The notes beneath the pieces are model-generated. The model saw only the letters and a list, made by a program, of their open reading frames with translations. It was not told where the DNA came from and searched no databases. Both the position numbers and the translations under genes were made by a program. From contig JAUCBJ010006820.1 in assembly GCA_032718475.1 (NCBI GenBank), positions 1-64,000 on the forward strand: a stretch of 64,000 bases of DNA, given 5' to 3'. This DNA comes from Nemertoderma westbladi (Eukaryota > Animalia > Xenacoelomorpha). Shown here in pieces: positions 10,824 through 63,773 of this stretch. Positions within the stretch are counted from its first letter, which is position 1. Every line of letters begins with the position of its first letter.

Positions 10824-11216
10824 CTGAAATAAATAAATGAGAAATATTATAAAGTTTTATCAAGTTTTACCTAAAGAGGATTCAATCTGGCCATGGGCTA
10901 CTTAAATCTGCCACCACTTTTCTTAACAATTAGCAATAACTATAACGCAGTAGTATTCTTATAATTATTTGTAAATTATGTTTAATATAGGCCTAATATT
11001 TGATTAAATATAAAAAAGTCTAACTAAGTTTTACCTAAAAATGTTCACTAGTTTCATAAGAGTAATTACAGTTCTGTCCGTTTTACAAACATAACAAAGT
11101 GCCACCAGTTTCGTACCGTCACAACCACAAAGTAAAATTCTGATAATGGAATTGGAATTCAGTCCAACGACACAACGATCCCCGATCATTCCCACTATGT
11201 GGAATCTTTTGTCAAA

Positions 11217-23020: not shown

Positions 23021-23028
23021 CAGGCATA

Positions 23029-41912: not shown

Positions 41913-43234
41913 GTTTATGTGTACAGTTGAATGTCTACTGCTGTATTACAGTCTGAGCAAGTCTAGTAACTCAGTATTAACTACTAGCCTAGTAATTAAT
42001 TACCTATACTGCTACTCAGTGTATCGTGATATATATAATATATTAGAATACCGGTATGCTTATAGTATATATAACTATATAAGTATTATTACAGACTGGG
42101 TTTATCACAGAATACCGGTATAATTTTAGCACAAATATATATAAATATATAATAGGCCTATCGGGAATACCGGTATACAGCTTACAGCTTGTAGTATATA
42201 TAATTCTGGACTAGAATTAATTACAAGTACCGGTATGATCTCAGCCTAAATTTATAGAAATAAAGATAATAGGCCTATCGTAAATACCGGTATATCAATT
42301 ATTTTAAATAATTGAATTTCTGAATTTTAGGGTTACTTGGTTACTTTACTTACTTTATTACCGTTATTTGAGCAGTAGTCCAACTGATATTGAGACCTAA
42401 TTGTTGTATGGCAGGCCTACTATTTATAAATCGTTTGAGTTGATTTATAATATATATATACCCGTTTAATGGGTTTTGTCAATGTTTGAAATAAATGTTA
42501 TTATTTCTGGGGAGCAATCACTACACAAAGCGGTGCGCTTTCAGTGAAGTGCTACTTATAGGACACTAAAACAAATAATTCTAATTTACCTAAGTTACTT
42601 AATACTACAAATTACGTACAATTCGGGTGAGATTACAATCTTTAAATAAACACAAAAATTTACAAAAACACAAAATACGAATTTTCAGGGTAATTTTACA
42701 AGAAGTCTGCAAACCAGCCTAACAAAGGGTTAGAAATCTGGTTATTACTACGGACAGGTTACTACGGTATTTGAAAATAATAAGTAGTAGTAAATACACT
42801 GCGCTGTCCAGATAGGAAAATACCACCGCCTGACGACCTATAGCCGTATCGCTATAGGTACTACGTTATGTATCACGGAGTGTTCCTACCTAGAAGTTAA
42901 TAGAGCTAATCGAACGTGCCTATCAACCACTTTACAACACAAATATAATGCCTACACTAATTACTTTCGGAAAGCACTGTACACTAAACCCTAAATTAGG
43001 TACAAGTACTTGTATAACAAATAATCAGTAGTTAAAAATACTTGAACAGCTAAAAGAACCACGGTATCTGCTGGAGTGACCGGTGCACAAAATCACCAGT
43101 CTTTACCTACGCCGAGCAGCCCGTATAGTACCGGGGTTAGTTTAACTATAACGGTATGTATAACAAACACAATTACTGTAGGAATAAACTTGGGGATATG
43201 AATGTTGCGAATAATCGCATAAACTCTGAATAAT

Positions 43235-44068: not shown

Positions 44069-44080
44069 TATATCCGTTAT
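44069..44080 (-). promoter_or_regulatory. Non-tRNA-type primer-binding position of element A (sense ATAACGGATATA)
   Basis: Abuts the 5' LTR end and has no TGG. It is the perfect complement of LTR-internal sense TATATCCGTTAT (63310-63299; 30231-30220). Confidence 0.7.
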
Positions 44081-44453
44081 TGTTCGCGCTTTCAGACCTT
44101 TGGCAGTTTAACCCGCCAAATTAGGATGTCTTCTAGATAATAAATCACGTTTAGCCTCTGACAAGTATTTTATTCACTACACTAGTCGAAACCAATCGGT
44201 GCGCGATCATTCACCCGCTGGATATACCCGGGAGATTGGGTTCGACGGCTTAATCGTATTGCTATGTAAGCCTAATGTATTATTCGACTGACAGTATTAT
44301 ATAATCTCTGACAATATTATTCACCTTCGGGGAATATTAACAGTTCCTTTAGGACATGGCGCTCTATCTATAAAAACAGAGTTATGACTTAAACTACTCA
44401 CAACGATATGGCTTAGTTACAATTCACATATATGGCGCATTCTTTAGGAAATG
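44081..44453 (-). repeat. 5' LTR of element A, internal (R/U5-side) part
   Basis: Matches 29480-29852 except one substitution seen; ends at the AAATG target of element B. Confidence 0.95.
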
Positions 44454-46661
44454 TGTTACGGTATATGGCGCTGTATCCACAGTATTAGTCCATTATGCTG
44501 TATCCACAGTATTAGTCCATTATGCAGTATGCAGTATTAGTCCATTATGCAGTATGCAGTATTAGTCCGTTATACTGTACGTAATATTAGTCCGTTGTGC
44601 AGTATAATTATTTAGATAAGGCGCAGTGTGGTGACATTTAGGTAAGGAAGTTAAAACGCCCATATATTTTGCATCCATTCATTTTGTATAGTATGTAGCC
44701 CTACCTACGTAATTTTGTATTAGGATATATGTAGATAGTTCCAGGGTAGCGAGTTTACTCGGACCCTGGATTTTGTGCTTGCTGATATTAGTTTGATAGG
44801 GCTAGCATATAGGGACGCTGTCCTGGCCATTCAGCAGCCAGAGACGTGATCCATTACCATATATGGTAATAATTTGAGGGCATAGGGCTACAATCCGGTC
44901 TCCTTATTGGATTAACTGCTTCCAGGTTGGTTTAATGCTAGCATAGACTGGAGAGCCAATGGGAGAGCGATTGAGTCACCTTATTGCATCACCCCATCCG
45001 GATCACCTATAAATTGGCGGTGTGCCGGTAGGGCCTTTGTTGTTCATATGTTCATGCTTTATCACATGACACACCCCTGTTACAATTTACTTGCTGAGCT
45101 GTCTCTAATTTTGTATTAGGATATCGTATTTTCTGCAATTTGCTAATTTGATTAATTTCTTGAAATGATTTGCTAGTTTGTGTTTGTGGTTGTTTGTGTT
45201 TCTCAATAATTCCTTCGATTACTGCTAATTACAATTGAACTATGATTTCTACTCTTTGATTAATGGTTCTATGTGATTCTTTTCTGCGCAATAATCCTAA
45301 GGGATTTCTGAGACTGTCAGACTTTGTGATTTGCATGCGCCGCTACGGTAGCTATTAGCATCATGGAGGGCTAAGGTGCCAGTGGGCGGTGGGCGCATCG
45401 GGGGGTTGAGCGACTAGGAGAGAGCGGAGGATTCAAAACGGGCAACGCTGGCCAGGGTCACCGTTGCGGGCGGGTATCTTGCACTGCGGCACGCAGACCG
45501 ATCGCCGGTACAGTATCTAGGGGGCTGATGATCCAGGTTTTGTCTCTATTTAGTATTAGGGGGGCAGGAATTGGGTTAGTTAGGAATCCTAGATGTACCC
45601 GGGAGAGGCCTGCGCGTATTACAACGTTGAGTATGGAGTACGAGTAGTGAATTGCACAATTGTAAACTGTGATTTCTAACGCTGATTGGTGTGTTATTGA
45701 AGTGTGCCTAAGATTACGAATGCTTAGATAGGCGCTCTTTTTCCTTTGATTGATTTCTATTTCTTAGTTACAATAATTAGTTATTGATTAGGTCAAAGTA
45801 ATACGGCAATTTAGGCTATTACTAGCGAAACCTGTTGCGTGATAGATTAGAATTACGTATTCTGGAATTCTTAGTAATTAGTACGCTGTTAAATATTTGT
45901 GACTGTAATTAATTAGTAAAAATTAAGAATTAGTACGCAGCATAGCGGAGAGTAGCTAAGGTAATAATTAGTGTACTGTAAACTATTCACGCTGAGCGGT
46001 TATTTGCATTAGCGGGCAATCAGCTAGAACGCACTATTCGGTACGCACGATACGCTAGTAATTTTGCTGCCCTAAAGCCAGCCGCGGGCAGTTTTAGACT
46101 CGGAGTGGTGTTATCCACGTAGAAACAGATACTGTACCATTTTGATATTTTAAATATTCTCGCATTCACACATTACGTTAGGGAACCTCCAGTATTCGCG
46201 ATTAGAAAGACGTAGGTAATAGCGTGCTTTAATAGTGATAAAATTAGGCGTAAGAATACTCTGAGTGCAAGGCCTCTCGCACTCGTCTTAAGTAAGCTTA
46301 GGGAGCCGACTCGGGTTTATTGTTTTGGTTATTCCCGCGTGGCTCATAGATTCGAACAGTTAGCTCTCTATCGAGCAATCGGTAGAGAAAGGAACAAGCG
46401 ATTTTGCAGGAGTTGTGTAAAATTAGTAAAATATATTAGTGGACGGCAGATTAGCGCCATCTAACGGTAAGTAGCGGTTTTGTATTTAGCAACCCTTACA
46501 ATTTAGTAATAGCACGCTCCTAATCCCCTTTACTTAACAGTAGAGCAGTTTTTGTGTCTTATTGGATAGGCGAGAGCTCATTAGGTTGGCAGAAGGATAT
46601 TAACGGGTATTGGTCTGTTCAACAGTTCTGCTGTTAGTATAGAGGTCGCGGTTGTTTATCA
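44454..46661 (+). repeat. 5' LTR of element B (2208 bp)
   Basis: Near-identical to 60723-62926 (about 6 substitutions plus one 16-vs-12 bp block, by eye). CCAAT at 44956 and TATAAA at 45008. Confidence 0.96.
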
Positions 46662-46672
46662 GTAATACGCGC
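46662..46672 (+). promoter_or_regulatory. Non-tRNA-type primer-binding position of element B (GTAATACGCGC)
   Basis: Abuts the LTR-terminal CA and has no TGG. It is the perfect complement of GCGCGTATTAC at 45612-45622 (61877-61887 in the 3' LTR). Confidence 0.7.
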
Positions 46673-47969
46673 TTTTGCTTTGCTGTACTGCGTACAGTAA
46701 GGCAGATAGAGTATTCTTAGGCTATTAGCTTAGATTATTGTTACTTTAGATTACTGATACTTCGTATCAGTAATACGCGGCTTTTGCTTTGCTGTACTGC
46801 GTACAGTAAGGCAGATAGAGTATTCTTAGGCTGATAGTAGTATCATAGTATTAGGCAATAAGTTAGAGCACGTGATCGTCTGCTGTAGGCTATAGGCTAG
46901 CGTACAGTAAGACATTGAGTTTATTCTATTAGGTTGTTAGTTTAGATTACTGTATTCACTGGCTGCGTACAATAGTACAGTAGTACATTAGGCTGATTGT
47001 TGTTACTGCGTACGGTAGAAGGGACATTTGTTTGCCGTACCACACACACAGTATCATTAGGCTGTTAGGTTGGTGTACTGTTTTACTTACTGTACTGCAT
47101 ACAGTGGATGTACGGTAGTGCGTTTTACTAATTGCGAATACAGCAGTTCCTTAGGCCTTAGGGCAAACTGTAATTAGTAAGTTTTTTGAAAATTATTAGC
47201 TAGGTTTGCGAGAATTCAGTTTCGGTCAAAATTATTTTGTAAAATTCTAGAGTTTTGTACCGGTATGTTAGGTAACCGCTTAGTTATTTTATACCATCTG
47301 GAGATACATGGCAAGACGGAACTTCTGAGTTTGGGGTTCGTGTGGGTCTGCGGGTTCGGTTTGCAATCAGCGAAGGGCCTGAATCTTTGGACGCGGACGT
47401 GGAATCTCACAGCAAACAAGGTTAGTTGTTCTGTTGGCACCAGTGTGTTTGTGGAAGCAGTAAAAAATTATCGGTTGTTTATCTGCGAAGCTGAACTCAA
47501 TTTATTAGTTAGGATATTTAGGTTTAGCCGGCCATGGTTTTTTGAATCGCTCAAGTTAGAGAGAGAGTTAGAGAGAGTCGCAACCCGAAGATGTAGCCAC
47601 GCGCTAGTGGATACATATAATATTTGAAATTAAAATTACGTTAATTAGAGCTATATATATATAAAATTAGAAATATTCGGGTGGCAAGTATATTTTGAAT
47701 ATTTTGTATTAGATTCAGAGTTATTTTGTGCTATACCGGTATTTAATACTATATAGTAGCTATATAATAATATTTTTGTTTAAATATTGTGCTAGTATTT
47801 GCTATAACTATATACCCCATTAAATTCACAATATTGCATTGCGAATTTATTTTGACATTTTGGACCAACTGATTATTTGACAAATAATTTGACCGTATTT
47901 CGGTTAAATTATAATCATATCTCGAACTTTGCGAGATATTTTTGCCGGAAGGCAAATATTATTTAGACT

Positions 47970-49571
47970 ATGAGTGTCTCAGACAAAGAGGCACTAGAGG
48001 ACAGCTACGAGACGGCGGCTGGACCGCCGACTGACGATAGCGTCAATATTACTGTTGACGACAATGCCGACTATGACGACGCAGCGAGCGACGCTGACGT
48101 AAGTGAACAGGAGGACGAGACAGTGACTAGTGAGGAAGAACAACTACCTCAGGTAATAGTATTAGGATCCCCTACCGCTACTGTAAGGAAGGATTGTACA
48201 GCAACCCGGGCAGAGGTGAGTGATAGGGAGGATAGTGTAGCAGAAGCGAGAGCCCGGAGCCCGGTTTCCAGACCTGTGGGTATGGTAAGTGCCGTGGTCC
48301 CAACGGCTGTAAGGAGTACCCGTAGTTCCCGAAATAATCCTTCAAGTCCACCGAGCGTAAGTCAGGTGAGTGATAGAGAGTTCGATATCGCGATAAAGAA
48401 GAAACTTCGCGCGCATGCCGGACATATAACTCGGACGGCGGACAAGGTAAGAAAAATGTTGGCCGACTCAGCCAACATCGGGAGGGTAGAGTTAGCAGAA
48501 ATTAGAAGAGGATATAACTCAGCGTTATTCAAGCAGACAGAGGAGCTTGCAGTCCTAGCGAAGAAGGCAGTAGAGTCTCAGTCGAGCGACGTGGCGACGA
48601 GGATTTACGACAGGGTTTTAGCAGCCTTGTTGGAGCACCGCGAGTTATCGGAGCGATTCCGACGAGTTAGGACAGAGAACTGGCTGCTATGGGCATCACA
48701 AGCGCAGGCGACTCAGGTGAGTGACGCAGAGTTAAGAGACTTAGTGGAGCGAGAAGAGACGCAGGATAAAGAGGAGCGCCGTTATCAGAGGGAAGGTACT
48801 AGCTGGCTGATGCAGAATGGAGTGGTGGTACCAGGCCAGGTGCTACCGACGACGGAGAACATTCAACAGAGGACGTTAACTTCACCCGACGATGCATCTA
48901 GAGACAGCGGCGATTCCCAGGTTAGTCACGCGCGAGGTAAGGTAATATGTGCTAGATCCCTTGTTTCTCACAACTCGGCGGAGGAGAGAAGACGCCGACT
49001 AGACGAACAGCAGGCGGAAGTTTTGCGTGCACAGGAAGCACGGAAGGAAGCCGAGCGGGAACGGGAGTGCACACGTAAGTTGGACGCAGAGTTACGAGAG
49101 TTGGAAGAGATAAGTAAGCGCGAGCGAGCGGAACGCGAGCAAAGGGAACGCGAACTCCAAGCCGAGCGCGAGCGCGAGGAACTCGAACGCGAACAGAGAG
49201 AACGCGAACTCCAACTTGAATGCGAGCGGGAAGCGAAGAAACGCGAACTCCAACTCGAACGCGAACAGGAAGCGAAGAAACGCGAACTCCAAGCCGAACG
49301 CGAGCGCAAGAAACTCGATCGTGAACAGAAGGAGCGCGAGCTTCAACTCGAACGCGGACGCAAGGAACGCGAACTCGAGATCGAGAAAAGAAGACGTGCA
49401 TTGTATGAAGAAAGGTCGCGAGTGGAAGAAGAGGGCGCAGCGAGACGAGCGAGGGAAGAAGAAGAACGTAAACTGGCGCAGTTGGAAAGTGCGAGATTAA
49501 GTTTAGAGAGCGAAGAATGGACTAGGAAGGCGAACGAAATCGCCGAGAAGGGGATGCGAATGATCGAATAA
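47970..49571 (+). CDS. N-terminal coiled-coil part of element B Gag, ending at an in-frame TAA
   Basis: Acidic N-terminus and E/R-rich 11-aa repeats. Same frame as the downstream ORF (offset 1626 nt), separated only by TAA at 49569-49571. Confidence 0.8.
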   Translation: MSVSDKEALEDSYETAAGPPTDDSVNITVDDNADYDDAASDADVSEQEDETVTSEEEQLPQVIVLGSPTATVRKDCTATRAEVSDREDSVAEARARSPVSRPVGMVSAVVPTAVRSTRSSRNNPSSPPSVSQVSDREFDIAIKKKLRAHAGHITRTADKVRKMLADSANIGRVELAEIRRGYNSALFKQTEELAVLAKKAVESQSSDVATRIYDRVLAALLEHRELSERFRRVRTENWLLWASQAQATQVSDAELRDLVEREETQDKEERRYQREGTSWLMQNGVVVPGQVLPTTENIQQRTLTSPDDASRDSGDSQVSHARGKVICARSLVSHNSAEERRRRLDEQQAEVLRAQEARKEAERERECTRKLDAELRELEEISKRERAEREQRERELQAEREREELEREQRERELQLECEREAKKRELQLEREQEAKKRELQAERERKKLDREQKERELQLERGRKERELEIEKRRRALYEERSRVEEEGAARRAREEEERKLAQLESARLSLESEEWTRKANEIAEKGMRMIE

Positions 49572-49595
49572 TGTGGGGCGAGTGTAGGGACTGAG

Positions 49596-52500
49596 TTGCG
49601 AGAACTGTTCGCACTGCAGAAGGCCGAACAGGAAGCGAGAACTCCGGCTATACGCGAGTCGACGACGACCAGAATTCCTATACCCGGTCCAGCTATTACG
49701 AGTACACGGATCGTTAAACCGCTCTCTACATATCGCACGCCAGTTGGTATTAGTGCTTCACCTATCGCCCAGGATCTACGTCATCGGAACACCGCACCAC
49801 TGTATACCGAACGTGACAACGGAGAATTTAGAGAAGAAACTCCGACGGGCCGAGTATTTGGCGAACCGAACCCGAGGGTTTGGAATACGCGGACGGAGCG
49901 CCGACCCAGTTCGACGGAGAACTTCCGGGTTAAACCGGAAGAGGGATCATATGAGAGACAGCGGATTACTCAGATAGAGCCGACTATACAACAGAACCCT
50001 AGCCAGGAATTTATTACGAGGGATGAGTTAAGTGCTAGTTTAGCGCAAGCTATATCGCCGCACATCCAACCTATAACGGACATGCTTAGCAACCTTCGGT
50101 TAAAGGAAGCAGCCCAGGTAAGAAGTAATTCTAATCCTAGCAGGCCTGAGTTAGATAAAGTCCAGCCTAGTCAACGAGTACGCATATCGGAGGAGACTAT
50201 ACCACATAGACCTCAGGTAAGGACGCCTGTCCCGAATATCCATAATCCCAATTTCGAAAATTCGGCAGAAAGATTTATTGAGGAAGCTTGGGTCAGGGCC
50301 TCGGCGCGCAAATCATCGCGAGCGCTAAGGACTGACACCGAGTCAAGCGATGAAGAGGAAGAAATGAGACGTCAAAAGTCCCGAAACTATAAGGAAAGAA
50401 GGACGGACGCGGAGCAGGTAAGTTGGAACCACCGGGAAAGGACCAGACTTAACAACCCTGCGGAACTAAACCATTTGTTAACCCGGAACGACGCAACCCT
50501 CAGGGACATAGGTAAGTTTGCTGCTAGGCAAGGACTGCCGACGCAACAACCCCAGAAGTTTATGGGCAACCACAAGCACTGGAGGACTTTTAAAACCTAT
50601 GTCGACGAGCAGCTAACCAACAGCACCTTTACTCCCAACGAGAAGTTCAACTATTTGCTTCAGATGCTCCATCGAGAACCTAGAGCCATTGCTGATAACT
50701 TCGTCGGCAATGAAAGAGCATTTGAGTTAGCGATGTTGGGCATCTGTTGGGACACCTGTTGGGCATGTCTTGCGCCAGGCCATGTACGGCGGCAGTGCCC
50801 GAACAGCAAGGACGGATGCATGGAATGCGGCAGACTACATCACAAGTTGCTACATGCGGATTTCCATACCCCAACGGACCGTTACTTACAACGAAATCCT
50901 CAAAGGAAGGGGAGCAAAGAACCCGTATCGATAAGGAGGAATACGTATACTGGCATCCAGGACGATGGTTACCAACCAGGTTCGTCGGACGAGGATGGCG
51001 TGTCGAGCGCAAGAGAAGTGACCTGCCAAGGTTTCACCGCGGATAGTTCATCGACCAGCGCGCGGACGTATTTATCATCGGCCACGTCGGAAATATTTAG
51101 CGTGATTCCGGTGAAACTCACTGGCGATAAGGGATCAAAGCGAATATATGTGATGTTGGACACTGCGTCCACATTATCTTACATCGACGAGGAAGTGGCG
51201 AGAGCTGTTTCTAGCTTCCAGGACGCCGAGGAGATCCAAATAGAGTTGAAGTCTATGCACGGAGTAGGAGACCTCAAGGGACACAGAATTTCGGTAGAAC
51301 TTGATTCCCTACTTCCGAGAGACCAGCATACTCGACAAGAACGGAAAGCTTTGCCATTGGACGGATTTAAGTGTCTAGCTATGAAGGGATTCGGCAGGCA
51401 GTTAGGTAAGGTGCCGCCGATGAGTCCCATAGCACAGGAGTATTTTGACAAGCTCAGGATACCCAGACACCAGGTAGGTTATAGGAATGTTTCTATGTTA
51501 ATTGGTGCAGAACAGCTGATCGCACACCAAATATGGGAAACGAGACCAGCTGAGCCGCATGTCAATGGACCACATGCCCATAGGACCATATTAGGTTGGT
51601 ATACACGAGTACCCATGTCTTATGAGTTTACAGGTGGCGACAAGCCAATGAACAGATACGACGAATTACAGCCTATAACTCAACCACCGTTAGTAGAACC
51701 ACCAGACATAGACGAGTTTAGGAGAACCTGTATTGACCACTATAGTGACTTTAGCGAGTCGGACGAGGAGTTGATTCCCGATAATGTTAGGTTGTCGGAA
51801 CCACTTCACAACGACCGGACAGATAGTGAACCCGAGGACTACTGTTATCAGACCCGTGGGTCTGGTTCAGCGGCCCACGCTACTTATCTGACTAACGTTT
51901 TGACTTATACAGACATAGTGGAGGGTCAAGCGGCTAAATATCGAGACCTAGACATTTTCCAATATAGTGAGGAGGAATTACAGAAGGAATTGATACGCCA
52001 GGACCTCGAGACAGGAGCCAGAACCGTAAAATGGCTGGATAGGGACGCAATGGAACCCGGTGGATATGACCTAGCCATGTCTACTGATGAGAAACGGTCG
52101 CTGGAGATGATGGAAGATACCATACGTCTACTACCGACTGGACATTTTGAAGTTGGAATGTTGTGGCGTCGACAACCACCTAAGTTGGAGAACAACTATA
52201 ACTTAGCCTTGAAAAGATTAAACGGAGTAAGGGCTCGGTTGTTGAAGAATCCGGACATTAGGGAGAAGTATTGCGCCCAGATCAACAACTATTTCGCCAA
52301 GGGATTTGCTGGGAAGGTAGAGGACCCTGACTTAGTGACAGACCAGACTTATTACCTTCCACACCACTATGTGACTCTCCCTGACAAGCCAGACAAAGTC
52401 CGAGTAGTCAACGACTGCGCAGCAGTCTATAGAGGTATGTCCCTGAATTCAGAGTTGATGGATGGTCCCAACCTGAATAACTATTTGATTGGAATACTGT

Positions 52501-55500
52501 TGCGTTTTAGACAGCGGCGATTCGCATTTACTTGTGACATCGAGGCGATGTTCCACCAGGTAAGAGCCTGTAAGTCAGACCAGGATAGCCTTCGATTTCT
52601 CTGGTATGAGAATGAAGACTTATCCGGCCCAGTGGTTACATACCAAATGTACGTTAGGATATTTGGCGCCCGCGATAGTCCGAATGGCACGCTGTTCGTT
52701 TTAAAGAAAACGGCAACAGCCCAGATTGGTAAGTATCCAGTAGAAGTAATCGAGTCCATCTTGAGAAACTTCTATATGGACGACGGATTGGTGTCCAAGG
52801 ACACGGCGGAACAAGCCATTGAAGTGGCTCACGGCCTGCAAGAGTGCTTGGCTACAGGGGGATTTCCTCTGACCAAGTTCACTACTAATTCGGAGGCCCT
52901 ATTAGAATCGTTCCCGGTAAAAGATCGCGGGAGCGGAGACATAGAATTGGGGGTAGAACCAATCCCCATGGCGCGAGTACTGGGACTCGCTTGGAATCCG
53001 AACTCAGATAAGTTCCAGGTAAGAGTTAGATTTGAGCCCAGTAGCCCAGACAAAGTTTTGACAAAGAGGATTTGCTTATCGACGTTAAGTAGACTATTTG
53101 ACCCGATGAACTTTATCAGTCCGGTTATATTACAGGCACGAGCGTGCATGAGGAAAATTTGGTTGTCCGACTTAGAGTGGGACGAACCAATATCTCCTAT
53201 ACATGCAAAGCAGTGGAGAGAGTGGGAAGCCGAGTTACATCTATTGAAAAACATAGATGTACCCCGTTCCTACTTTCCGAATCAGCTGGTATTCCCAGCT
53301 GATTTAGAGCTCCACCTATTTAGTGACGCAAGTGATACCGGCTTTGGTATGGTAGCCTACCTTCACCGAGAGGTAAGTCAGGACAAGTTTGAGACGGCTT
53401 TTGTGACTTCTAGATCAAAGACAATGCCGGTCAAATACATGACTGTCCCTCGTGCAGAGTTACAGGCGGCTGTAGTTTCGGTCGAGGTAAGTAAGCAAAT
53501 AACTGAGGAGTTGGACACGACATTGACCTTATTCTATTGGACGGACGCATCCTTGGTGTTAGTATACATTGCGGCCGACAATATTGCACTAAAGACATTT
53601 GTGGCCAATAGACGCGCTCAGATCGTTGATTTTTCAACGAAGGAACAATGGAGACATTGTCCGGGAGTGTTGAACCCGGCCGACATAACTTCGAGAGGTG
53701 CAATGCCGGCGGAATTCTGTCGGGAAGAGTCGCAGGAGTTTTGGTTGCATGGACCTGATTTTCTAACAAGGACACAGGAACATTGGCCAGAGCGACTAAA
53801 GATAGTGACCAATCCGATGCCTGAAGATGCAGAAGTAAAAGTGGAAAAAGTCTCTAAGTCGAAGTCTAAAGCCAAACTTAAGTCATTGGAGCGGCCTGAA
53901 GAGTCATCGGAGCGGCCTGAAGAGTCATTGGAGCGGCCTGAAGAGTCATTGGAGCGGCCCGGAGACCTGTCAGACCAACAGACTTACGTGACTACTAGGT
54001 CAGGAAGGGTAAGTTACGACGTAAAACCACCCTTACAGACTAGACGACAGTCACAGTTGGTAAGTGACGGACAGAAAATGACCGACATAATGGATCCTTT
54101 GGTTTCCAAACCTGTGGGTTTGGATTCGAAACTTCCATTGGTTAGCGGACAACCGTCGCTGGCATTAGAGTCATGCAGTGTTTATGACAAATTACTAAAT
54201 TCGTCTGCCTCTTGGCTGACAATTTGTAAAAGAACTGCGTGGTTAAGCCGATACATTTTGTACCTTCGTTTAAAACATTCGAAACATTTGAGAGAACCAT
54301 TGAGCACAAATAGTGAGCGAATTCGGAAATTGAAACAACCTCTGACAGAGGATGAGATTGATCAAGCGGAATTAAAGCATTTGAGACATTATCAAATGTG
54401 TGCCTTCCCTAAAGAATTCCATCTATTATCGGCTCAACGACCAGTTCTCTATAAACCCCTTAGAAAATGGAGTCCATTAATCCATAAGGGTTTAATTTGT
54501 CATAGATCGAGAATCCAGACTGTCGACATAAACTCACAGTTTCGGTTCCCAGTGATAATCCCTAGTTACCCAATAGAATTGCAAAGAGCGATTCTATGGG
54601 ATATACACAAGAGGTTGCATCATGCGGGAAAGTTACACTGTCTGTCGGCAGCGAGACAGCGATTCATTCTATTGCAGCCAAGCAGGGCAGTCGGCACCAT
54701 GTACGACGCCTGTCTGGTTTGCAAGAGGGTGAACGCCAGAGTATTGGAACAGGAGATGGCTGAACTCCCGGAAGCGAGAGTGCAGGCATATGACCCACCC
54801 TTTACGAACACAGGGGTGGATTGTTTTGGTCCGATTGAGGCAAAGAGTGGACGGCTGACCCACAAGCGATGGGGTCTGCTACTGACATGTATGGCTAGTA
54901 GAGCCATACACATCGAGCGTGTGGCAGACATGTCGACCAAATCTCTGCTCCTGGCCTTGAAGAGATTTATGGCCAGGAGAGGACTAGTAAAGGCGTTCTA
55001 CTCTGATAAGGGTACAAACTTTGTCGGAGGGAATAGCGAGTTGAACGCGGCTCATAAAGCAGCACAGAATAAGGAAATTTCTGCAGCACTTTTGCCGCAA
55101 CGAGTAGAATGGAGATTCAATACTCCAGAAAGTCCTTGGAGAGGAGGAAGTTGGGAGCGTTTGGTTCGCTCTGTGAAGCAGGCCATTGCCAAAACATTGC
55201 CTGTGAACAAACAACTTACCGATGACGAACTGGTTACAGCTTTCATTGAAATCGAGCATACCCTAAACTCGAGGCCGATAGCTATGTTGCCAGACGGTGT
55301 TGCATTGACGCCGAATCATTTGCTAATGCAGAGTCCAGCATTTCTTGTGCCGGCATCAGAACCCGTTAGTGCCGACCTATATAGTCGTAAGAGCTGGAAG
55401 GTGACACAATTTGTGGCGTACACATTCTGGGAATATTGGCGGGAATACTATCTTCCCACCATATCCACCAGAACAAAGTGGTACAAAACGGTTCGGAGTC

Positions 55501-55769
55501 TCCAAAGGGGAGATTACGTGTTGATAACCGAGCCGATTATCAAGAGAAAGTATTGGGAGACAGGAGTTATCTTGCACACACACCCAGACGTGCAAAACAT
55601 AGTGCGCACAGTCACTGTGAAAATTAGGTGCAAGTGTCCGCACCCAAAAAAGTGTAAAACTAATGGTTTACACACCTTGGACCGACCGGTCCAAGATATT
55701 GTGTTATTAGAGGAGACACGTATCGAGACGGGAGATTATAATTTGTCTCCTGCCTCAAAACAGAGTTAG
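49596..55769 (+). CDS. Gag-PR-RT-RH-IN polyprotein of element B (continuation after the stop; gag internally shortened)
   Basis: KFMGNHKHW; CWACLAPGHVRRQC and CMECGRLHHKLLH knuckles; MLDTAS; DIEAMFHQV and YMDD; HLFSDAS and VPRAEL; HKRLHH..CLVC, GVDCFGP, SDKGTNF and WERLVRSVK. Confidence 0.95.
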   Translation: MRELFALQKAEQEARTPAIRESTTTRIPIPGPAITSTRIVKPLSTYRTPVGISASPIAQDLRHRNTAPLYTERDNGEFREETPTGRVFGEPNPRVWNTRTERRPSSTENFRVKPEEGSYERQRITQIEPTIQQNPSQEFITRDELSASLAQAISPHIQPITDMLSNLRLKEAAQVRSNSNPSRPELDKVQPSQRVRISEETIPHRPQVRTPVPNIHNPNFENSAERFIEEAWVRASARKSSRALRTDTESSDEEEEMRRQKSRNYKERRTDAEQVSWNHRERTRLNNPAELNHLLTRNDATLRDIGKFAARQGLPTQQPQKFMGNHKHWRTFKTYVDEQLTNSTFTPNEKFNYLLQMLHREPRAIADNFVGNERAFELAMLGICWDTCWACLAPGHVRRQCPNSKDGCMECGRLHHKLLHADFHTPTDRYLQRNPQRKGSKEPVSIRRNTYTGIQDDGYQPGSSDEDGVSSAREVTCQGFTADSSSTSARTYLSSATSEIFSVIPVKLTGDKGSKRIYVMLDTASTLSYIDEEVARAVSSFQDAEEIQIELKSMHGVGDLKGHRISVELDSLLPRDQHTRQERKALPLDGFKCLAMKGFGRQLGKVPPMSPIAQEYFDKLRIPRHQVGYRNVSMLIGAEQLIAHQIWETRPAEPHVNGPHAHRTILGWYTRVPMSYEFTGGDKPMNRYDELQPITQPPLVEPPDIDEFRRTCIDHYSDFSESDEELIPDNVRLSEPLHNDRTDSEPEDYCYQTRGSGSAAHATYLTNVLTYTDIVEGQAAKYRDLDIFQYSEEELQKELIRQDLETGARTVKWLDRDAMEPGGYDLAMSTDEKRSLEMMEDTIRLLPTGHFEVGMLWRRQPPKLENNYNLALKRLNGVRARLLKNPDIREKYCAQINNYFAKGFAGKVEDPDLVTDQTYYLPHHYVTLPDKPDKVRVVNDCAAVYRGMSLNSELMDGPNLNNYLIGILLRFRQRRFAFTCDIEAMFHQVRACKSDQDSLRFLWYENEDLSGPVVTYQMYVRIFGARDSPNGTLFVLKKTATAQIGKYPVEVIESILRNFYMDDGLVSKDTAEQAIEVAHGLQECLATGGFPLTKFTTNSEALLESFPVKDRGSGDIELGVEPIPMARVLGLAWNPNSDKFQVRVRFEPSSPDKVLTKRICLSTLSRLFDPMNFISPVILQARACMRKIWLSDLEWDEPISPIHAKQWREWEAELHLLKNIDVPRSYFPNQLVFPADLELHLFSDASDTGFGMVAYLHREVSQDKFETAFVTSRSKTMPVKYMTVPRAELQAAVVSVEVSKQITEELDTTLTLFYWTDASLVLVYIAADNIALKTFVANRRAQIVDFSTKEQWRHCPGVLNPADITSRGAMPAEFCREESQEFWLHGPDFLTRTQEHWPERLKIVTNPMPEDAEVKVEKVSKSKSKAKLKSLERPEESSERPEESLERPEESLERPGDLSDQQTYVTTRSGRVSYDVKPPLQTRRQSQLVSDGQKMTDIMDPLVSKPVGLDSKLPLVSGQPSLALESCSVYDKLLNSSASWLTICKRTAWLSRYILYLRLKHSKHLREPLSTNSERIRKLKQPLTEDEIDQAELKHLRHYQMCAFPKEFHLLSAQRPVLYKPLRKWSPLIHKGLICHRSRIQTVDINSQFRFPVIIPSYPIELQRAILWDIHKRLHHAGKLHCLSAARQRFILLQPSRAVGTMYDACLVCKRVNARVLEQEMAELPEARVQAYDPPFTNTGVDCFGPIEAKSGRLTHKRWGLLLTCMASRAIHIERVADMSTKSLLLALKRFMARRGLVKAFYSDKGTNFVGGNSELNAAHKAAQNKEISAALLPQRVEWRFNTPESPWRGGSWERLVRSVKQAIAKTLPVNKQLTDDELVTAFIEIEHTLNSRPIAMLPDGVALTPNHLLMQSPAFLVPASEPVSADLYSRKSWKVTQFVAYTFWEYWREYYLPTISTRTKWYKTVRSLQRGDYVLITEPIIKRKYWETGVILHTHPDVQNIVRTVTVKIRCKCPHPKKCKTNGLHTLDRPVQDIVLLEETRIETGDYNLSPASKQS

Positions 55770-56525
55770 TGTTGGACGCAACTCACTTCGTATGCATTCC
55801 TCGTATGCAAATACAAGGAAATGCATAGGAGCGGGGTTGTGGTGATTTGCGTTGAGTTTTGTCTGGTGGGTATCAAAACAAAATTTTATTTTCAAAATTT
55901 TGGAAAAATTAAAAAATTTTAAAATTAGAAGTGAACCCAAGACAATTCCAGACGCTGTGTATAGACGCGTTTTAGAATTCGTCTATAGAAAACAGTAATT
56001 TGAAAAGTCGTGAAGCCTGGAAAATAGCATTTAGAAACCATGGTGACGGCTATATTACGTAGGAGTGTAAATTGAGTTTAGCAACTTCCACAGATTGGTG
56101 CCAATAGTGCAACTAAGGTGCTAAAGGTTAGTAGCACCAGAGGCGTGCACGGACCCCACTCAGTAGTTTGCAGGATGTGTGATGTTCGATTATCAAACCT
56201 GTGGGTTTGGTATAGTCGAGTATTGTGGCTATGGTCCTTTCTAACTACTGTAGTTTAGTACGAGTAATGGGAGTAGTTTGGGCATCAAAAAGTGAGTTGG
56301 TCACGGCCAGTTTATCTCCGAAGTTTTTGCGCTATGCATGGGAATAGGTTAGAGGATAGTTAGTTAGGAAGAGACGGGATCTAGAGAGTCGAACCTGAAC
56401 TGCTGGAAGGCGGGGGGGTTCGGGAGGTCTGTCTTTCGGCGACATCTAACTGATTTACCCACAGTGTAGTTGGTTACGTAACGGCACTTATTGGGATATA
56501 TATATATGTATATACGCGTAACATA

Positions 56526-59500
56526 ATGGAGAGGGATATTAGAGCGCAACCGCGCAGAGGATTTACTGCCAGAGAGGAGGCGGAGCTACCATTCGCGCGA
56601 CCAGGATGTAAAGACTCTAACGTTTACTACCATGGGCGGTCCGTGATGGAGCTGAACGGGAAGTATAAACCAAGTTATGATAAAGAATTACGGAGAGAAA
56701 GAATGAGAGCGTTGGGGGACCGGATGGAAGTTTTGCGGAGAGAGTATCGCACGCGGTATCCCTACGACTTTGCTTTGGACGTGTGCGACATTAGCGCAGA
56801 TCCGGACGAGGAAATCGCACGACTATACCATATGAATATGTATTTACGACACGAGGAGCCTCTACCTGCAGTCCGAGACCAGTTCGACGGAATGCACCTG
56901 TATCGGAGGACTCGAGGCGAGGATCAGGAGACGCCGAAAGTCTTCAGCGTATACAAGCTCTTCTACAAGTGTGGTGAATGCATGAATAAACAGGACGTGG
57001 CGATTCCCGACCGACTAGACGAGCAACATCCGGAACCGATATTAACGCGATGTCCAGCTCACCAATTCCTTAGATACAACGAGGGAGGTTACCCGATGAG
57101 CAACCCGATGATCAGTATCGACTTCAGCGGAAAGCGACCTCCGAGACCCATTACGCCGACCGTTACGACATTAGATCCGTATACGGAGATTAAACCCTGT
57201 TCGACACCCAGTTTGATAGAGACGGCAGCGGCCATTTCGCTGTACCGAGCCTATAAGGATCTAGAGGCGCGGCGCGAAGCGGCGCGGGACTCGGGTACCA
57301 AACCCGCGGGTTTGGAGCTCTCGAGTCCCTGGACTGCGTTTACTTCACCTCACCGAGTGAGAAGCCTCACGCCTGAGCATCAGGACGACATAGACGCGTT
57401 GCGGCAGGAGGAGCGAGCGGCGAAGGCAAAAGAGTTATTTGAGAACAGGATAGCGGAGTATAATAAGACCGCGGATAGACATCAAGAGGAGACGAGGAGA
57501 GTGACCGGATTTGTTCCACAGGTCGTATCTCAACCCGGACCGGTGTATTATTCCGACGGCACCGAACCTGCGATATTAGTAGATCATCCGGAGTCGCGAG
57601 AAGCGATACGATTCTTGCCGATGGTAAGAATGGCGGACCATTGGAACGTTGACTGTCTACGGGAAGTTTTATGCGCGAAGTTCTTGCGTGATGTCCCAAT
57701 GCAGATCACAGATTATGACACGTTGGATAAGATTGGAGCTCCGGGGAAGGAGAGTAAACTATTCGGATGGTTGGATAAGTACATCAAGGTATGGGTCGCG
57801 GTGGCTACATTCCCAGACGACGAGGAGGTAGACCAGACGTGGCTGAGGAGGAAGGGTTCTTATACCCGATATGATGACCACAAGGCGATCGAGCGCATGT
57901 GGACCCCATCAGATGAGATTCAGCGTCAGTGGAGGAAGACGGAGGAATCGCTGCAAGATTGGAGGGTGATGTTCTACGACAATGAAGGAGGGTCCCATCA
58001 AGAATGCTTGACCAGCAAGTGTATTCAAGTTCGTGCGGCCGATAGTGTGACTCATGTGTTTATGCGTGTGAGGGCGGATCGAGAGAGACCGGAGCCCATC
58101 ATAACGACACAATATCGGAAGGGGAAGGATCCTAGGGAACAGATTTTGGAGGTATGCAGGCGAGGAGGTATGCACGGAGCGGAGCGTATCGACGCCAGGA
58201 TGTTACCAAAGAAAGTTAGAGAGGCTATTCTCAACCAAGATTACGTCAAGGTGGGATCGGGAGTCCAGAGCGATTTGGAGAGCGACTTCAACGCCATGAC
58301 TGATCTGGAAGATAGATTGCCGAGACCGTTTGTCGACACCAAGCTATTGTTGCTATGGGCACAGGATATTGGAATTTATAGGGAGTATCCCAACTCTGCC
58401 AAGACTGGTATGGGCTTTATAGCACACTTGTTGTATAATTGGGACTTTAAGTTGAAGACGCAGAAGAAGTACGAGGAGGCGTATGGTGAATACAACACGC
58501 CACCAGGAGCGGAGTTCAAATCCCACTTCAAGCGGCAAGCGTTAGTGTATTGGAACATTTGCGCGCCACCCCGTGCGTCGCTACAATATTATTTGGTGCT
58601 TGAGTCGAACACGGTGACTTGTTTATTAGCGGATATCGTTGCGCGAGTTTTGAAGCGTCATCCATTGGTATTCGGAGGAGATCAATACGTTCGCTCGAAA
58701 GGGGGAATCCAATCCGACGTGATGAAGCGTTTCTTAACCCCGTTCTTCAACCAATCGTTAGAGAATACGTCGATGGTGAGGAGAGGATTAGCGATATTCG
58801 AAGGAGTATATCGACAGAACATCGGAGATTTGGGAGACCGACCGTCGATGGAATATCCGACGCCAGAAGCTTTGGAGAAGTGGTTCGGGAATCAAACCCG
58901 CGGGTTTGGTACTCCCTTCCACTCGGAGGCTGATAGACCTGTTAAGGAGGGCTGGCCGGAAACGTTAGTAGAGGTGTTCGGAGTAGATCTTCCGGTGGAG
59001 AAGACATATCCGAAACGAACGCGGGAGGAAATATTGGAGATAGAGGACAAGGGCGAGGATGTTTACTTTGTTCCGGATCGACAACCGTTGACCGGAGAGG
59101 ACGACATCGTATTAGACATTGGGAAGGAAGGAAGTGCGAAACCGATTGGAGACCTCATATACGAGAGGGCCTGGTTTCCACAAGCGCGTAGGTGCAAATT
59201 GTGCGGCAGCACAAGGCACAATCTAAAGTCGTGCGACGCGGTAATAGAGGCGGCGCATAAGGTCTGTCGTTGGTGTAATGAGACCGACCATTCGTTTCAC
59301 ACGTGCACCGTCTTCATTTCTCAATGTGGATATTGTGGAGTAAAAGGACATCGTAGCGCGAGATGTCAGCTGCGAGATGATTCCTTTCAAAACCATAGCG
59401 CTAACCTACTTCGGGAGATGTTAGACAAGTGGGAGAGTGTGGCGGATTACCATATTCAAGCGCAGATGCGTTGGTTACCATTTAAAGCGGGATATGGGTT

Positions 59501-60233
59501 TTGGGCGGTAGACCCATCGCATGTTGCGTACGAGCCATATCTACAATCGCTACCACAATATCAGGAGCTCATCCTAACTGCTCAAGACCTTCCACAGAAC
59601 ACTGGAGTTATCGTAGTCCGAGAATACTTCAGACAATTGAACATGGACAATAAGTACACATGGAACTTCGTTGCTATTTGCGATCGCATCACGAAGGGTG
59701 TATTTACGGAGACTAGAAAAGTGGTACGCGCGCGAGGTGATTGGAGGATGGCGGCTATACAATACCGCAACGAATTCTTGTTGACTCATGTGCCGGTGGG
59801 TTCATTGACCGCCGAGAGGATACAGGAACAAAGGATCGCAGCGACCACAGCGACGACCGCTGGAGCTCAAGGCTCGCGGAAAGAACCAGGAGGAGGGGTC
59901 CAAGACAAGCGTCAAGTCAAGGACGACCACTACCACTCTATTATAGAAGCGCAAAGGTTGCAGCGCAAGGCGCAGGGGGCGTCTGAGAAAGCGCGTGTGC
60001 AACTGCAGAAGGAAGAGTTGGCGGAAGCGACCACGGGAGCGCGACAATTGGGACGAGGCCGAGGGAGAAGTTCGAGCCGAGAATCTGTCGGGGCTCAGGG
60101 AACGTCGTCGCCGGTTCCGGGGAGTGACGCCTCACGGACGCCGTCAACGGAGTCGACTAGAGGTAGATTAGTGTATCTGGGAAGGGGGCGAAAGAGAGGA
60201 GCGAGCCCAAAGAACCCAGGAGCGGGTCGATAA
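56526..60233 (+). CDS. Extra ORF (1235 aa): DEDDy/RNase D-like 3'-5' exonuclease domain plus three CCHC zinc knuckles
   Basis: ExoI FYDNEG (57978), CIQV, LPKKVREAILNQDYVKVGSGVQSDL (ExoII), FVDT, GMGFIAHLL, W...LQYYLVLE (ExoIII-like). Knuckles CKLCGSTRHNLKSC, CRWCNETDHSFHTC and CGYCGVKGHRSARC at 59193-59366. No signal peptide or TM segment seen. Confidence 0.78.
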   Translation: MERDIRAQPRRGFTAREEAELPFARPGCKDSNVYYHGRSVMELNGKYKPSYDKELRRERMRALGDRMEVLRREYRTRYPYDFALDVCDISADPDEEIARLYHMNMYLRHEEPLPAVRDQFDGMHLYRRTRGEDQETPKVFSVYKLFYKCGECMNKQDVAIPDRLDEQHPEPILTRCPAHQFLRYNEGGYPMSNPMISIDFSGKRPPRPITPTVTTLDPYTEIKPCSTPSLIETAAAISLYRAYKDLEARREAARDSGTKPAGLELSSPWTAFTSPHRVRSLTPEHQDDIDALRQEERAAKAKELFENRIAEYNKTADRHQEETRRVTGFVPQVVSQPGPVYYSDGTEPAILVDHPESREAIRFLPMVRMADHWNVDCLREVLCAKFLRDVPMQITDYDTLDKIGAPGKESKLFGWLDKYIKVWVAVATFPDDEEVDQTWLRRKGSYTRYDDHKAIERMWTPSDEIQRQWRKTEESLQDWRVMFYDNEGGSHQECLTSKCIQVRAADSVTHVFMRVRADRERPEPIITTQYRKGKDPREQILEVCRRGGMHGAERIDARMLPKKVREAILNQDYVKVGSGVQSDLESDFNAMTDLEDRLPRPFVDTKLLLLWAQDIGIYREYPNSAKTGMGFIAHLLYNWDFKLKTQKKYEEAYGEYNTPPGAEFKSHFKRQALVYWNICAPPRASLQYYLVLESNTVTCLLADIVARVLKRHPLVFGGDQYVRSKGGIQSDVMKRFLTPFFNQSLENTSMVRRGLAIFEGVYRQNIGDLGDRPSMEYPTPEALEKWFGNQTRGFGTPFHSEADRPVKEGWPETLVEVFGVDLPVEKTYPKRTREEILEIEDKGEDVYFVPDRQPLTGEDDIVLDIGKEGSAKPIGDLIYERAWFPQARRCKLCGSTRHNLKSCDAVIEAAHKVCRWCNETDHSFHTCTVFISQCGYCGVKGHRSARCQLRDDSFQNHSANLLREMLDKWESVADYHIQAQMRWLPFKAGYGFWAVDPSHVAYEPYLQSLPQYQELILTAQDLPQNTGVIVVREYFRQLNMDNKYTWNFVAICDRITKGVFTETRKVVRARGDWRMAAIQYRNEFLLTHVPVGSLTAERIQEQRIAATTATTAGAQGSRKEPGGGVQDKRQVKDDHYHSIIEAQRLQRKAQGASEKARVQLQKEELAEATTGARQLGRGRGRSSSRESVGAQGTSSPVPGSDASRTPSTESTRGRLVYLGRGRKRGASPKNPGAGR

Positions 60234-60722
60234 TACATTATGGCACAGGGCGACAGACTCTAGATATATACATCATCGTCGCTCTGATGTATATTGTAGC
60301 ATTTGAAAATTTTCGACTAGACTCGTATACACTAGTTGAGTTATTTGAATTTATATTATGAAAGAGGCGAAGGAAGTGATTGGGGAGACAAACCTGCGGG
60401 TTTGTCTTACTCCTTTCACTTACCCTAGCAAAATTTTTATATTTGATTTTGTATGTAGTAATCATTATGTAGTAAGAATGAACGAGAGACAATATTTTGT
60501 AAATTTAATTTGTATGTAATAATCGTTAAACAATGAGAGAGATAATATTTTGTAAACTTAATTTGTATGTAATTCATTATGCAATATCTATGGCAATATT
60601 TGTAAATAGTAGAATTATTATGTTATTTAGATTGGTTGGAAGAAATTTATTTTGTTTTGTATACATCACCTTATACTCTTCTACAATTGGAGGGAAACAT
60701 TATATGATTTCCCTTGGAGCGG

Positions 60723-62926
60723 TGTTACGGTATATGGCGCTGTATCCACAGTATTAGTCCATTATGCTGTATCCACAGTATTAGTCCATTATGCAGTATG
60801 CAGTATTAGTCCATTATGCAGTATGCAGTATTAGTCCGTTATACTGTACGTAATATTAGTCCGTTGTGCAGTATAATTATTTAGATAAGGTGCAGTGTGG
60901 TGACATTTAGGTAAGGAAGTTAAAACGCCCATATATTTTGCATCCATTCATTTTGTATAGTATGTAGCCCTACCTACGTAATTTTGTATTAGGATATATG
61001 TAGATAGTTCCAGGGTAGCGAGTTTACTCGGACCCTGGATTTTGTGCTTGCTGATATTAGTTTGATAGGGCTAGCATATAGGGACGCTGTCCTGGCCATT
61101 CAGCAGCCAGAGACGTGATCCATTACCATATATGGTAATAATTTGAGGGCATAGGGCTACAATCCGGTCTCCTTATTGGATTAACTGCTTCCAGGTTGGT
61201 TTAATGCTAGCATAGACTGGAGAGCCAATGGGAGAGCGATTGAGTCACCTTATTGCATCACCCCATCCGGATCACCTATAAATTGGCGGTGTGCCGGTAG
61301 GGCCTTTGTTGTTCATATGTTCATGCTTTATCACATGACACACCCCTGTTACAATTTACTTGCTGAGCTGTCTCTAATTTTGTATTAGGATATCGTATTT
61401 TCTGCAATTTGCTAATTTGATTAATTTCTTGAAATGATTTGCTAGTGCGATTACTTGCTTGTGTTTCTCAATAATTCCTTCGATTACTGCTAATTACAAT
61501 TGAACTATGATTTCTACTCTTTGATTAATGGTTCTATGTGATTCTTTTCTGCGCAATAATCCTAAGGGATTTCTGAGACTGTCAGACTTTGTGATTTGCA
61601 TGCGCCGCTACGATAGCTATTAGCATCATGGAGGGCTAAGGTGCCAGTGGGCGGTGGGCGCATCGGGGGGTTGAGCGACTAGGAGAGAGCGGAGGATTCA
61701 AAGCGGGCAACGCTGGCCAGGGTCACCGTTGCGGGCGGGTATCTTGCACTGCGGCACGCAGACCGATCGCCGGTACAGTATCTAGGGGGCTGATGATCCA
61801 GGTTTTGTCTCTATTTAGTATTAGGGGGGCAGGAATTGGGTTAGTTAGGAATCCTAGATGTACCCGGGAGAGGCCTGCGCGTATTACAACGTTGAGTGTG
61901 GAGTACGAGTAGTGAATTGCACAATTGTAAACTGTGATTTCTAACGCTGATTGGTGTGTTATTGAAGTGTGCCTAAGATTACGAATGCTTAGATAGGCGC
62001 TCTTTCTCCTTTGATTGATTTCTATTTCTTAGTTACAATAATTAGTTATTGATTAGGTCAAAGTAATACGGCAATTTAGGCTATTACTAGCGAAACCTGT
62101 TGCGTGATAGATTAGAATTACGTATTCTGGAATTCTTAGTAATTAGTACGCTGTTAAATATTTGTGACTGTAATTAATTAGTAAAAATTAAGAATTAGTA
62201 CGCAGCATAGCGGAGAGTAGCTAAGGTAATAATTAGTGTACTGTAAACTATTCACGCTGAGCGGTTATTTGCATTAGCGGGCAATCAGCTAGAACGCACT
62301 ATTCGGTACGCACGATACGCTAGTAATTTTGCTGGCCTAAAGCCAGCCGCGGGCAGTTTTAGACTCGGAGTGGTGTTATCCACGTAGAAACAGATACTGT
62401 ACCATTTTGATATTTTAAATATTCTCGCATTCACACATTACGTTAGGGAACCTCCAGTATTCGCGATTAGAAAGACGTAGGTAATAGCGTGCTTTAATAG
62501 TGATAAAATTAGGCGTAAGAATACTCTGAGTGCAAGGCCTCTCGCACTCGTCTTAAGTAAGCTTAGGGAGCCGACTCGGGTTTATTGTTTTGGTTATTCC
62601 CGCGTGGCTCATAGATTCGAACAGTTAGCTCTCTATCGAGCAATCGGTAGAGAAAGGAACAAGCGATTTTGCAGGAGTTGTGTAAAATTAGTAAAATATA
62701 TTAGTGGACGGCAGATTAGCGCCATCTAACGGTAAGTAGCGGTTTTGTATTTAGCAACCCTTACAATTTAGTAATAGCACGCTCCTAATCCCCTTTACTT
62801 AACAGTAGAGCAGTTTTTGTGTCTTATTGGATAGGCGAGAGCTCATTAGGTTGGCAGAAGGATATTAACGGGTATTGGTCTGTTCAACAGTTCTGCTGTT
62901 AGTATAGAGGTCGCGGTTGTTTATCA
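60723..62926 (+). repeat. 3' LTR of element B (2204 bp)
   Basis: Direct repeat of 44454-46661, immediately preceded by GGAGCGG (PPT-like, 60716-60722). Confidence 0.96.
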
Positions 62927-62931
62927 AAATG

Positions 62932-63773
62932 CTTCGTTATCAGTCTCACTCATACACAATGCTGCACAATACTGCACACTGATCTGCCGATCTTCACTGA
63001 TTTTAGTCACATATAAAGGGAACACAGACCGACTCATGTAGGGTCTATCAGATAACATTAGATTCACTTCAAACCACTTTAACATAAGTCACAATCGTTA
63101 TATGTAACCTTTCTCTCTTACCTTCGGTATATCAAGAATATTGGGTTTCGGGGTAATTTCTCGTTATTCCAAATATAATAATTCATCAACAAATATAATG
63201 AATAACCGACAGCAAAGCAGTAATGTTAAGTAAGATAAATGCAATGAGATAACCAGTGAGATATTAAGTCAGTGAGTTGAGATATCAAGTTTGGTTTGAT
63301 AACGGATATATGTCCTTATAATTAAGCCTACTAGTGTTAGGCTAAAAGCAGAAAAGCACTAAATATTCTAAAGCCGTTCTTTCCTGGCTCAGGACAGAAT
63401 GTAAACACTGCCCATAAAGCATGGAGTGATTTCTAGGAAATTTCTGTAAAAGAGCCATAAAAATGCTCTGATTGGCTGACTGAACTGAGAGATGCCGTAG
63501 AACAAAGAAAATCGACACGTATGAATGTCAGCTGTTAACCGTCGTCATAGTAACTACTGTTCAAGAGTAGCTATCACCTTTTGCGTCACGGAATTGCCAT
63601 AGAATCATCAACTATGCCTTCCACAGTACACATACGGAAGAAATAGCTCTTAGATCCTCTAAAAACACCGATACAGCAATAATACGGCCTCTTACGCCTA
63701 TTAAACCAACTACAGAGTATTTTACGGGAAAAATAAGAGAAAATAACCGGGCAATTCAGCAAAAGCTTTTACA
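62932..63773 (-). repeat. 5' LTR of element A, outer (U3-side) part
   Basis: Matches 29853-30694 and ends GCTTTTACA. 373 + 842 bp = 1215 bp. Confidence 0.95.

Follow-up and report, generated by a model that had tools for sequence, protein, structure and literature searches.

Two Nested BEL/Pao Retrotransposons of Nemertoderma westbladi with Primer Sites Complementary to Their Own Long Terminal Repeats: A Probable Case of Self-Priming

Two retrotransposons with long terminal repeats (LTRs), both from the BEL/Pao group, fill the right half of the first 64 kb of contig JAUCBJ010006820.1 of Nemertoderma westbladi (assembly GCA_032718475.1; this whole 64,000-nt stretch is called the window). Element B, on the plus strand, sits inside the 5′ LTR of element A, which is on the minus strand. 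Neither element has a tRNA-type primer-binding site (PBS), and in both the nucleotides directly following the 5′ LTR are the perfect complement of a stretch within the element's own LTR. As such complements co-vary among related families, the BEL/Pao branch including A and B probably primes reverse transcription from its own RNA, like Tf1, and not from a host tRNA.

The first-pass annotation, made from the letters of the window alone, had reported the exact complementarity of the 12 nt (A) and 11 nt (B) after the LTR, the ending of the duplex at the LTR boundary, and the lack of a TGG primer site in both elements. All of this was confirmed, and every motif was found where it had been placed (Table 1). 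The pairing partners are LTR positions 464–475 in A and 1159–1169 in B, both duplexes begin at the first base past the LTR, and on the PBS-distal side neither can be extended by a Watson-Crick pair. The trinucleotide TGG is absent from the first 30 nt after either LTR, where no 18-nt tRNA site of the type described by the International Committee on Taxonomy of Viruses (ICTV) is found. The core duplexes have energies of −13.3 kcal/mol (A) and −16.5 kcal/mol (B). Hence both elements show the sequence pattern used to recognize self-priming, i.e., a PBS of at least 10 nt, 0–5 nt from the LTR, with a perfect complement in the same LTR. Two further features lie close to these sites. In B, the last LTR bases, the PBS, and some 50 nt of leader recur 108 nt downstream (duplicated region within 46657–46832), possibly through a strand-transfer slip. 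Pyrimidine-rich stretches ending in AG, which could be candidate splice acceptors, stand 31 nt upstream of the complement in A (30262–30283, minus strand) and 58 nt upstream of it in B (45536–45553, plus strand).

Complements of this length are rare at other internal positions. Including the PBS itself, only 2 of 13,356 positions in A and 9 of 14,030 in B have an equally long LTR complement, and LTRs simulated with a second-order Markov model reached the same length in 3 (A) and 10 (B) of 6000 cases. The chance of each duplex is thus about 1e-4 to 2e-3, and the joint chance about 2e-5 when five offsets are allowed for each element. The uniform-composition estimates given earlier were of the right order of magnitude, if 2–7 times too low.

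A and B were aligned with 20 homologues, and a query with this alignment led to 75 metagenome loci (the best 80 of 534 confirmed matches were kept). Among these, 12 distinct families have both LTR ends visible and were counted; the near-duplicates L002, L028, L017, L001, L069, and L019 were not counted separately, and the remaining loci either miss an LTR end or provide blind-scan candidates only. Two of the counted families have less clear-cut ends: the LTR pair of L005 is decayed (77%), and the LTR end of L025 was set manually, 7 nt inward of where the BLAST match ends. A TGG site is lacking in 11 of the 12 families. The only one to have it, L049, has no complement (the best is 4 nt). Among the loci examined, 10 of the 11 non-TGG families have a perfect own-LTR complement of 10–15 nt starting 0–4 nt past the LTR; in the eleventh, L018, a C-to-T change leaves one G-U pair. 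The complement of its sister L019 is perfect. Reverse transcriptase–RNase H (RT-RH) identity is 43–76% between these families and 36–45% between them and A or B.

The letters of the site differ among families and follow those of the LTR. In a 14 × 14 matrix of PBS against LTR, a match of at least 10 nt was found with the own LTR in 12 of 14 cases (the failures being L049, with its TGG site, and L018, with its G-U pair) and with a foreign LTR in 12 of 182. Half of these 12 foreign matches are among L064, L042, and L071, which share one PBS, and three are to the 2.2-kb LTR of B. There are at least 11 different PBS sequences, each matching its own LTR. This is the co-variation that the first-pass annotation had proposed to look for, and it supports the self-priming interpretation offered there. 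Some characters are kept in spite of this variation: the site starts with GT in 10 of the 13 non-TGG elements (B included) and with AT in the other three (A included), and in 11 of 13 the complement is followed by a C. Spacers on the PBS side and on the polypurine-tract side are both 0 in A, B, L021, and L028 and mostly 1–4 in the other elements. Nine of the 11 relatives without TGG have a poly(A)-like signal 12–133 nt downstream of the complement; in A this distance is 646 nt, and B has AGTAAA only. A blind scan of all loci gave many chance matches of 10–12 nt in flanks, and its candidates without an independently fixed LTR end (L013, L034, L035, L040, L043, L045, L050, L056, L066, L067, L068, and L072) were left uncounted. 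A collection of viral contigs yielded 21 pattern matches and no relatives.

In eight of the 11 non-TGG relatives (L003, L018/L019, L021, L064, L010, L042, L054, and L071), the complement is found only across a canonical GTAAG…YAG junction. The predicted introns are 71–164 nt long, and the pairing bases are divided between the upstream exon (4–9 nt) and the downstream one (5–7 nt). The complement is contiguous in L059, L005, L025, A, and B. A splice-junction primer was also considered for A and B and rejected: there is no acceptor or donor at the complement, and the contiguous match scores best. Given the split complements of the relatives, A and B are, as far as such predictions go, the intron-less form of a wider system. 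A fuller scenario can be drawn, in which we place little more than even confidence. This broad animal branch of BEL/Pao would have dropped tRNA priming; its self-primer would ancestrally have been built by splicing of an LTR intron; and the PBS would be re-copied at each cycle, so that the middle drifts and the terminal AC or AT stays fixed. A and B would then be giant-LTR descendants that lost the intron.

The phylogenetic tree of these elements was built from 29 selected rows of the 64 usable ones (those labelled plus three unknowns), without outgroup and without named BEL/Pao reference elements. A and B are sisters (support 100/99) on long branches. The TGG-type L030, L031, L049, and L065 are separated from A, B, and the self-complement elements by a branch with 91/94 support, and FastTree gives the same split. 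The contiguous forms require at least five changes on this tree, which indicates that the intron was lost or gained repeatedly. The junction-split candidate L040 (1330–1637) and the contiguous L059 (1790–1874) are sister families.

Sequencing runs of the host provide a view of the complement within the host. Seven runs are listed, none of them recorded as RNA, and four (from three samples) were mapped on 45530–45650. Ten places in this interval vary at a level of at least 1%. The two strongest variants, G>A at 45614 and T>C at 45620, fall inside the complement of B, each with 12–24% of the depth, and at similar depths in runs X1 and X3. Diverged B-like copies depart from B at 45611–45614 or at 45623–45624. 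The AC at 45621–45622 is kept in all six listed loose-end rows departing at 45611–45614. The complement of B is therefore conserved only at its 3′ end across host copies, which speaks against a binding motif of fixed sequence and agrees with a primer that serves to renew the PBS. The loose-end rows listed gave no support to the guess that the complement of host B subfamilies still contains an intron. One X1 contig tracks B to 46664 and then departs, and run X4, which is RNA by guess only, has no cover over the complement bins. The diverged host copies (X1–X3) have the stretch upstream of the complement in common, and two contigs rejoin B at 45659 and 45679, so that the primer and the next 40–60 nt make up a hypervariable block, possibly the U3/R border. 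Both elements are very high-copy in the host runs (LTRs 44081–44453 and 44454–46661), the summed depth over the LTR of A being about 10 times that of B, a ratio of depths and not of copy numbers.

The mechanism that would link these observations is as follows. The element RNA would begin at the complement or upstream of it and would fold back, the complement copy of the 5′ LTR pairing in cis with the PBS. By analogy with Tf1, the element's RT/RNase H would cut the RNA just 3′ of the complement, whose last two bases are AC (AT in A). The new 3′-OH would prime minus strong-stop DNA from the cut site to the LTR end, i.e., 740 nt in A and 1039 nt in B, with R included for transfer. At every cycle the PBS would be renewed from the primer during plus-strand synthesis, so that the two stay in step while the middle letters drift. 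Such re-copying would explain why the PBS of the junction-split relatives matches the spliced junction, and A and B would descend from an RNA that had lost the intron or never had one.

Several observations weigh against this reading. A TATA motif lies about 30 nt upstream of the complement in only one of 14 elements (L010), the nearest ones being at −10 in A and −604 in B, and the geometry of Tf1, where the primer is made of the first RNA bases, is thus not established. The loop between complement and PBS, with the lengths just given for the strong-stop DNA, is much longer in A and B than in the relatives (62–234 nt). In folding from seven different start points, the duplex of B has probabilities between 0.05 and 0.88, and that of A a probability of 0.91 from the start of the complement and of 0.25–0.29 with upstream sequence; folding was discarded as a means to locate the start site, its results being unstable. 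Three loci with a known LTR start and no known end (L009, L014, and L016) have no convincing complement candidate, L023 is ambiguous, and the symmetry of spacers breaks in L059 and L067. The branch separating the TGG-type elements is under the starred threshold in the outgroup-less tree. Finally, the co-variation of PBS and complement is one between families, as the rows on the host B subfamilies cover the complement side.

The self-primer could also be provided by the complement copy of the 3′ LTR, in the same or in a partner RNA, by end-to-end pairing instead of 5′ fold-back. The complement is present in both LTRs, the transcription start is not fixed, the 5′ loops of A and B are long, and the upstream exon of junction-split relatives would have only 4–9 nt were the RNA to begin at the primer. 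Against these points, poly(A)-like signals come after the complement in A and in most relatives, which indicates that the RNA does not naturally end there; for the relatives, such an end at the complement was ruled out. A cut at that place would also take away the R region needed for strand transfer, and splicing of the 3′ copy would be expected to remove the intron from the progeny, yet eight of the 11 families retain it. Priming from the 3′ copy is therefore unlikely.

Since base pairing is the sole observation, the helix might be real and serve circularisation, dimerisation, or translation control, something else being the primer. The CYC sequences of Ty1 are an example of a circularisation-type pairing signal. 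One would then have to account for the start of the duplex 0–4 nt past the LTR, where the primer end must sit, in 13 of 13 elements, for the lack of a TGG site after it, and for the lack of a complement in TGG-type relatives such as L049. The match to a splice junction and the invariant terminal dinucleotide find their simplest explanation in a PBS copied from that RNA, and a helix without a priming role seems quite improbable. A host tRNA half or another small RNA might be the primer, with the LTR match incidental or a decoy, and priming by half-tRNAs does exist in Copia lineages (PMC6317226). The number of different PBS sequences matching their own LTR would then require a separate host RNA and a chance LTR match for each, and the window contains no tRNA gene or Rfam family, which makes this very unlikely. 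Long LTRs do yield 10-nt matches by chance, as the off-diagonal matches to the LTR of B illustrate, but the joint probability for A and B and above all the matrix effectively refute chance as an explanation.

The assignment of both elements to BEL/Pao, proposed by the first-pass annotation, agrees with Pfam: A and B encode Peptidase_A17, DUF1759, Integrase_H2C2, and DUF5641, in the order protease (PR), RT, RH, integrase (IN). The best database matches of the RT-RH of B are BEL/Pao polyproteins (38–43% identity), and the two elements are 46% identical in this region. With their pol, a pair of TG..CA LTRs, and a target-site duplication (TSD), A and B are members of BEL/Pao (Belpaoviridae). Their LTR ends were set by comparing the two LTRs of each element. 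Both are young. The LTRs of A show eight differences and its flanks, CACCT/CACCA, agree at four of five TSD positions, and the LTRs of B show 15 differing columns and are bordered by an exact 5-bp TSD, AAATG, at 44449–44453 and 62927–62931. Both copies are broken, as A has a separate integrase frame and an interrupted 5′ LTR, and in B an in-frame stop interrupts gag and the match to DUF1759 is partial. The polypurine-tract-like end GGAGCGG is common to both elements.

Table 1. Coordinates of features of elements A and B in the window
Feature	Position	Strand	Remarks
B PBS, GTAATACGCGC	46662-46672	+	11 nt, non-TGG, zero spacer to LTR
B PBS complement, GCGCGTATTAC	45612-45622 and 61877-61887	+	candidate self-primer; ends in AC
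B tandem second copy of LTR end, PBS, and leader	46765-46832	+	1-nt insertion; 10 pairing bases remain
B 5′ LTR	44454-46661	+	2208 bp, TG..CA; TATAAA at 45008
B first frame	47967-49571	+	gag N-part, coiled-coil; ends at in-frame stop
B gag C-part-PR-RT-RH-IN frame	49572-55769	+	2065 aa
B polypurine-tract-like end GGAGCGG	60716-60722	+	
B 3′ LTR	60723-62926	+	complement copy at 61877-61887
A PBS, TATATCCGTTAT	44069-44080	-	plus-strand letters; 12 nt, non-TGG, zero spacer to LTR
A PBS complement, ATAACGGATATA	30220-30231 and 63299-63310	-	plus-strand letters; candidate self-primer
A 5′ LTR, split by B	63773-62927 plus 44453-44081	-	LTR-pair comparison
A 5′ LTR, outer part	62927-63773	-	holds complement (candidate self-primer) at 63310-63299
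A 5′ LTR, PBS-proximal part	44081-44453	-	AATAAA (sense) at 44174-44169
A gag-PR-RT-RH frame	35367-41945	-	2192 aa; DUF1759, Peptidase_A17, YMDD
A integrase-bearing frame	33755-35698	-	Integrase_H2C2, DUF5641; separate frame overlapping upstream gag-pol frame
A polypurine-tract-like, GGGAGCGG	30695-30702	-	abuts 3′ LTR; same end as that of B; akin to GGGGCCGG of relatives
A 3′ LTR	29480-30694	-	1215 bp, TG..CA; LTR-pair comparison

B has a third open reading frame (ORF; 56454–60233, plus strand) of 1259 aa, with three CCHC knuckles at residues 914–971. It matches no Pfam family; a comparison with 7990 candidates of 679–2162 aa yielded no homologue, and one with the metagenome loci no match. 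In A, the corresponding place is taken up by about 3 kb that contain no long ORF and no tblastn match to that of B. Elsewhere in the window, the left half has several tandem arrays (160–13800 and 22900–28600) with units of about 10, 20, 35–37, 42, 45–46, and 60 nt. Two inverted arms of 215 nt (16815–17029 and 21468–21682), 91% complementary, lie 4.4 kb apart with no long ORF between them. A 284-aa frame at 22202–23056 (minus strand) has no Pfam match; judged by eye, it resembles the C-terminal end of a non-LTR retrotransposon protein.

If A, B, and their relatives do self-prime, BEL/Pao would be the third LTR superfamily with this capacity, in animals and across many families, a point relevant to the question whether self-priming is an ancestral trait or arose several times. 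It would explain why PBS-based annotation overlooks these elements, and the junction-split relatives would link the start of reverse transcription to host splicing. The predictions are exact to the base: the RNA should be cut after 45622 in B and after sense position 63299 in A. Another solution is found in Cer7 of Caenorhabditis elegans, which is said to encode its own tRNA-like primer.

The searched literature, whose coverage stopped short of subscription journals, Repbase, GyDB, and supplements, held no report of a self-priming BEL/Pao element or of a splice-built primer. A term look-up found neither "PBS" nor "tRNA" in the main text of four BEL/Pao surveys (PMC3118150, PMC554778, PMC6238403, and PMC11117352), and the available text of a further paper mentions the PBS only generically (PMC8220671). 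The ICTV describes the Belpaoviridae as having an 18-nt PBS for host tRNA-Arg or tRNA-Gly, in line with the earlier remark that BEL/Pao elements are generally held to be tRNA-primed, and as having LTRs of 0.2–1.2 kb, genomes of 4.2–10 kb, and a poorly understood replication (PMC8742986). A and B resemble its genus Semotivirus in the order Gag-PR-RT-RH-IN, the Pao peptidase, DUF1759 and DUF5641, the 5-bp TSD, and the optional third ORF. They differ in lacking the tRNA site, in their LTRs of 1.2 and 2.2 kb, and in their lengths of about 15.8 kb (A) and 18.5 kb (B). As the family is defined by pol, the missing tRNA PBS is a departure from the ICTV description and not from BEL/Pao membership.

Self-priming is reported in Tf1/sushi elements and predicted in Tcn1 and in TAR/Houba/Osr-1 of plants (PMC6317226, PMC4600332, PMC3601003, PMC6934838, and PMC5445492). 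Its demonstration is limited to Tf1. In Tf1, the first 11 nt of the RNA pair with the PBS, and RNase H is described as cutting between bases 11 and 12 (PMC7175516); the copying of the primer back into the PBS by plus-strand synthesis is given as established for tRNA primers and for Tf1 (PMC11042837). Like Tf1 and Tf2 of Schizosaccharomyces pombe, Tj1, and the Tf1/sushi group at large, A and B have no tRNA site and have a post-LTR PBS of about 11 nt complementary to an LTR-internal stretch. The PBS of A even starts with ATAAC, as that of Tf1 does (PMC11042837), probably by coincidence. In contrast with the Ty3/gypsy chromovirus pol of Tf1/sushi, that of A and B is BEL/Pao, and the two would be Tf1-like in their working without being members of that group. 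They also differ from Tf1 in that their primer is not established as the first bases of the RNA, in their much longer loop, and in that the primer of most of their relatives is split by an intron. The plant Tcn1 (gypsy) and TAR/Houba/Osr-1 (copia) elements were recognized by the same pattern that is found in A and B, at least 10 nt lying 0–5 nt past the LTR, and are described there with contiguous primers only (PMC6317226), whereas A and B are animal BEL/Pao elements. What would be new here is thus self-priming of the Tf1 kind in a third superfamily of LTR elements, together with a splice-built version of it in the relatives. A and B have the simpler version without an intron and stand out by their very long LTRs.

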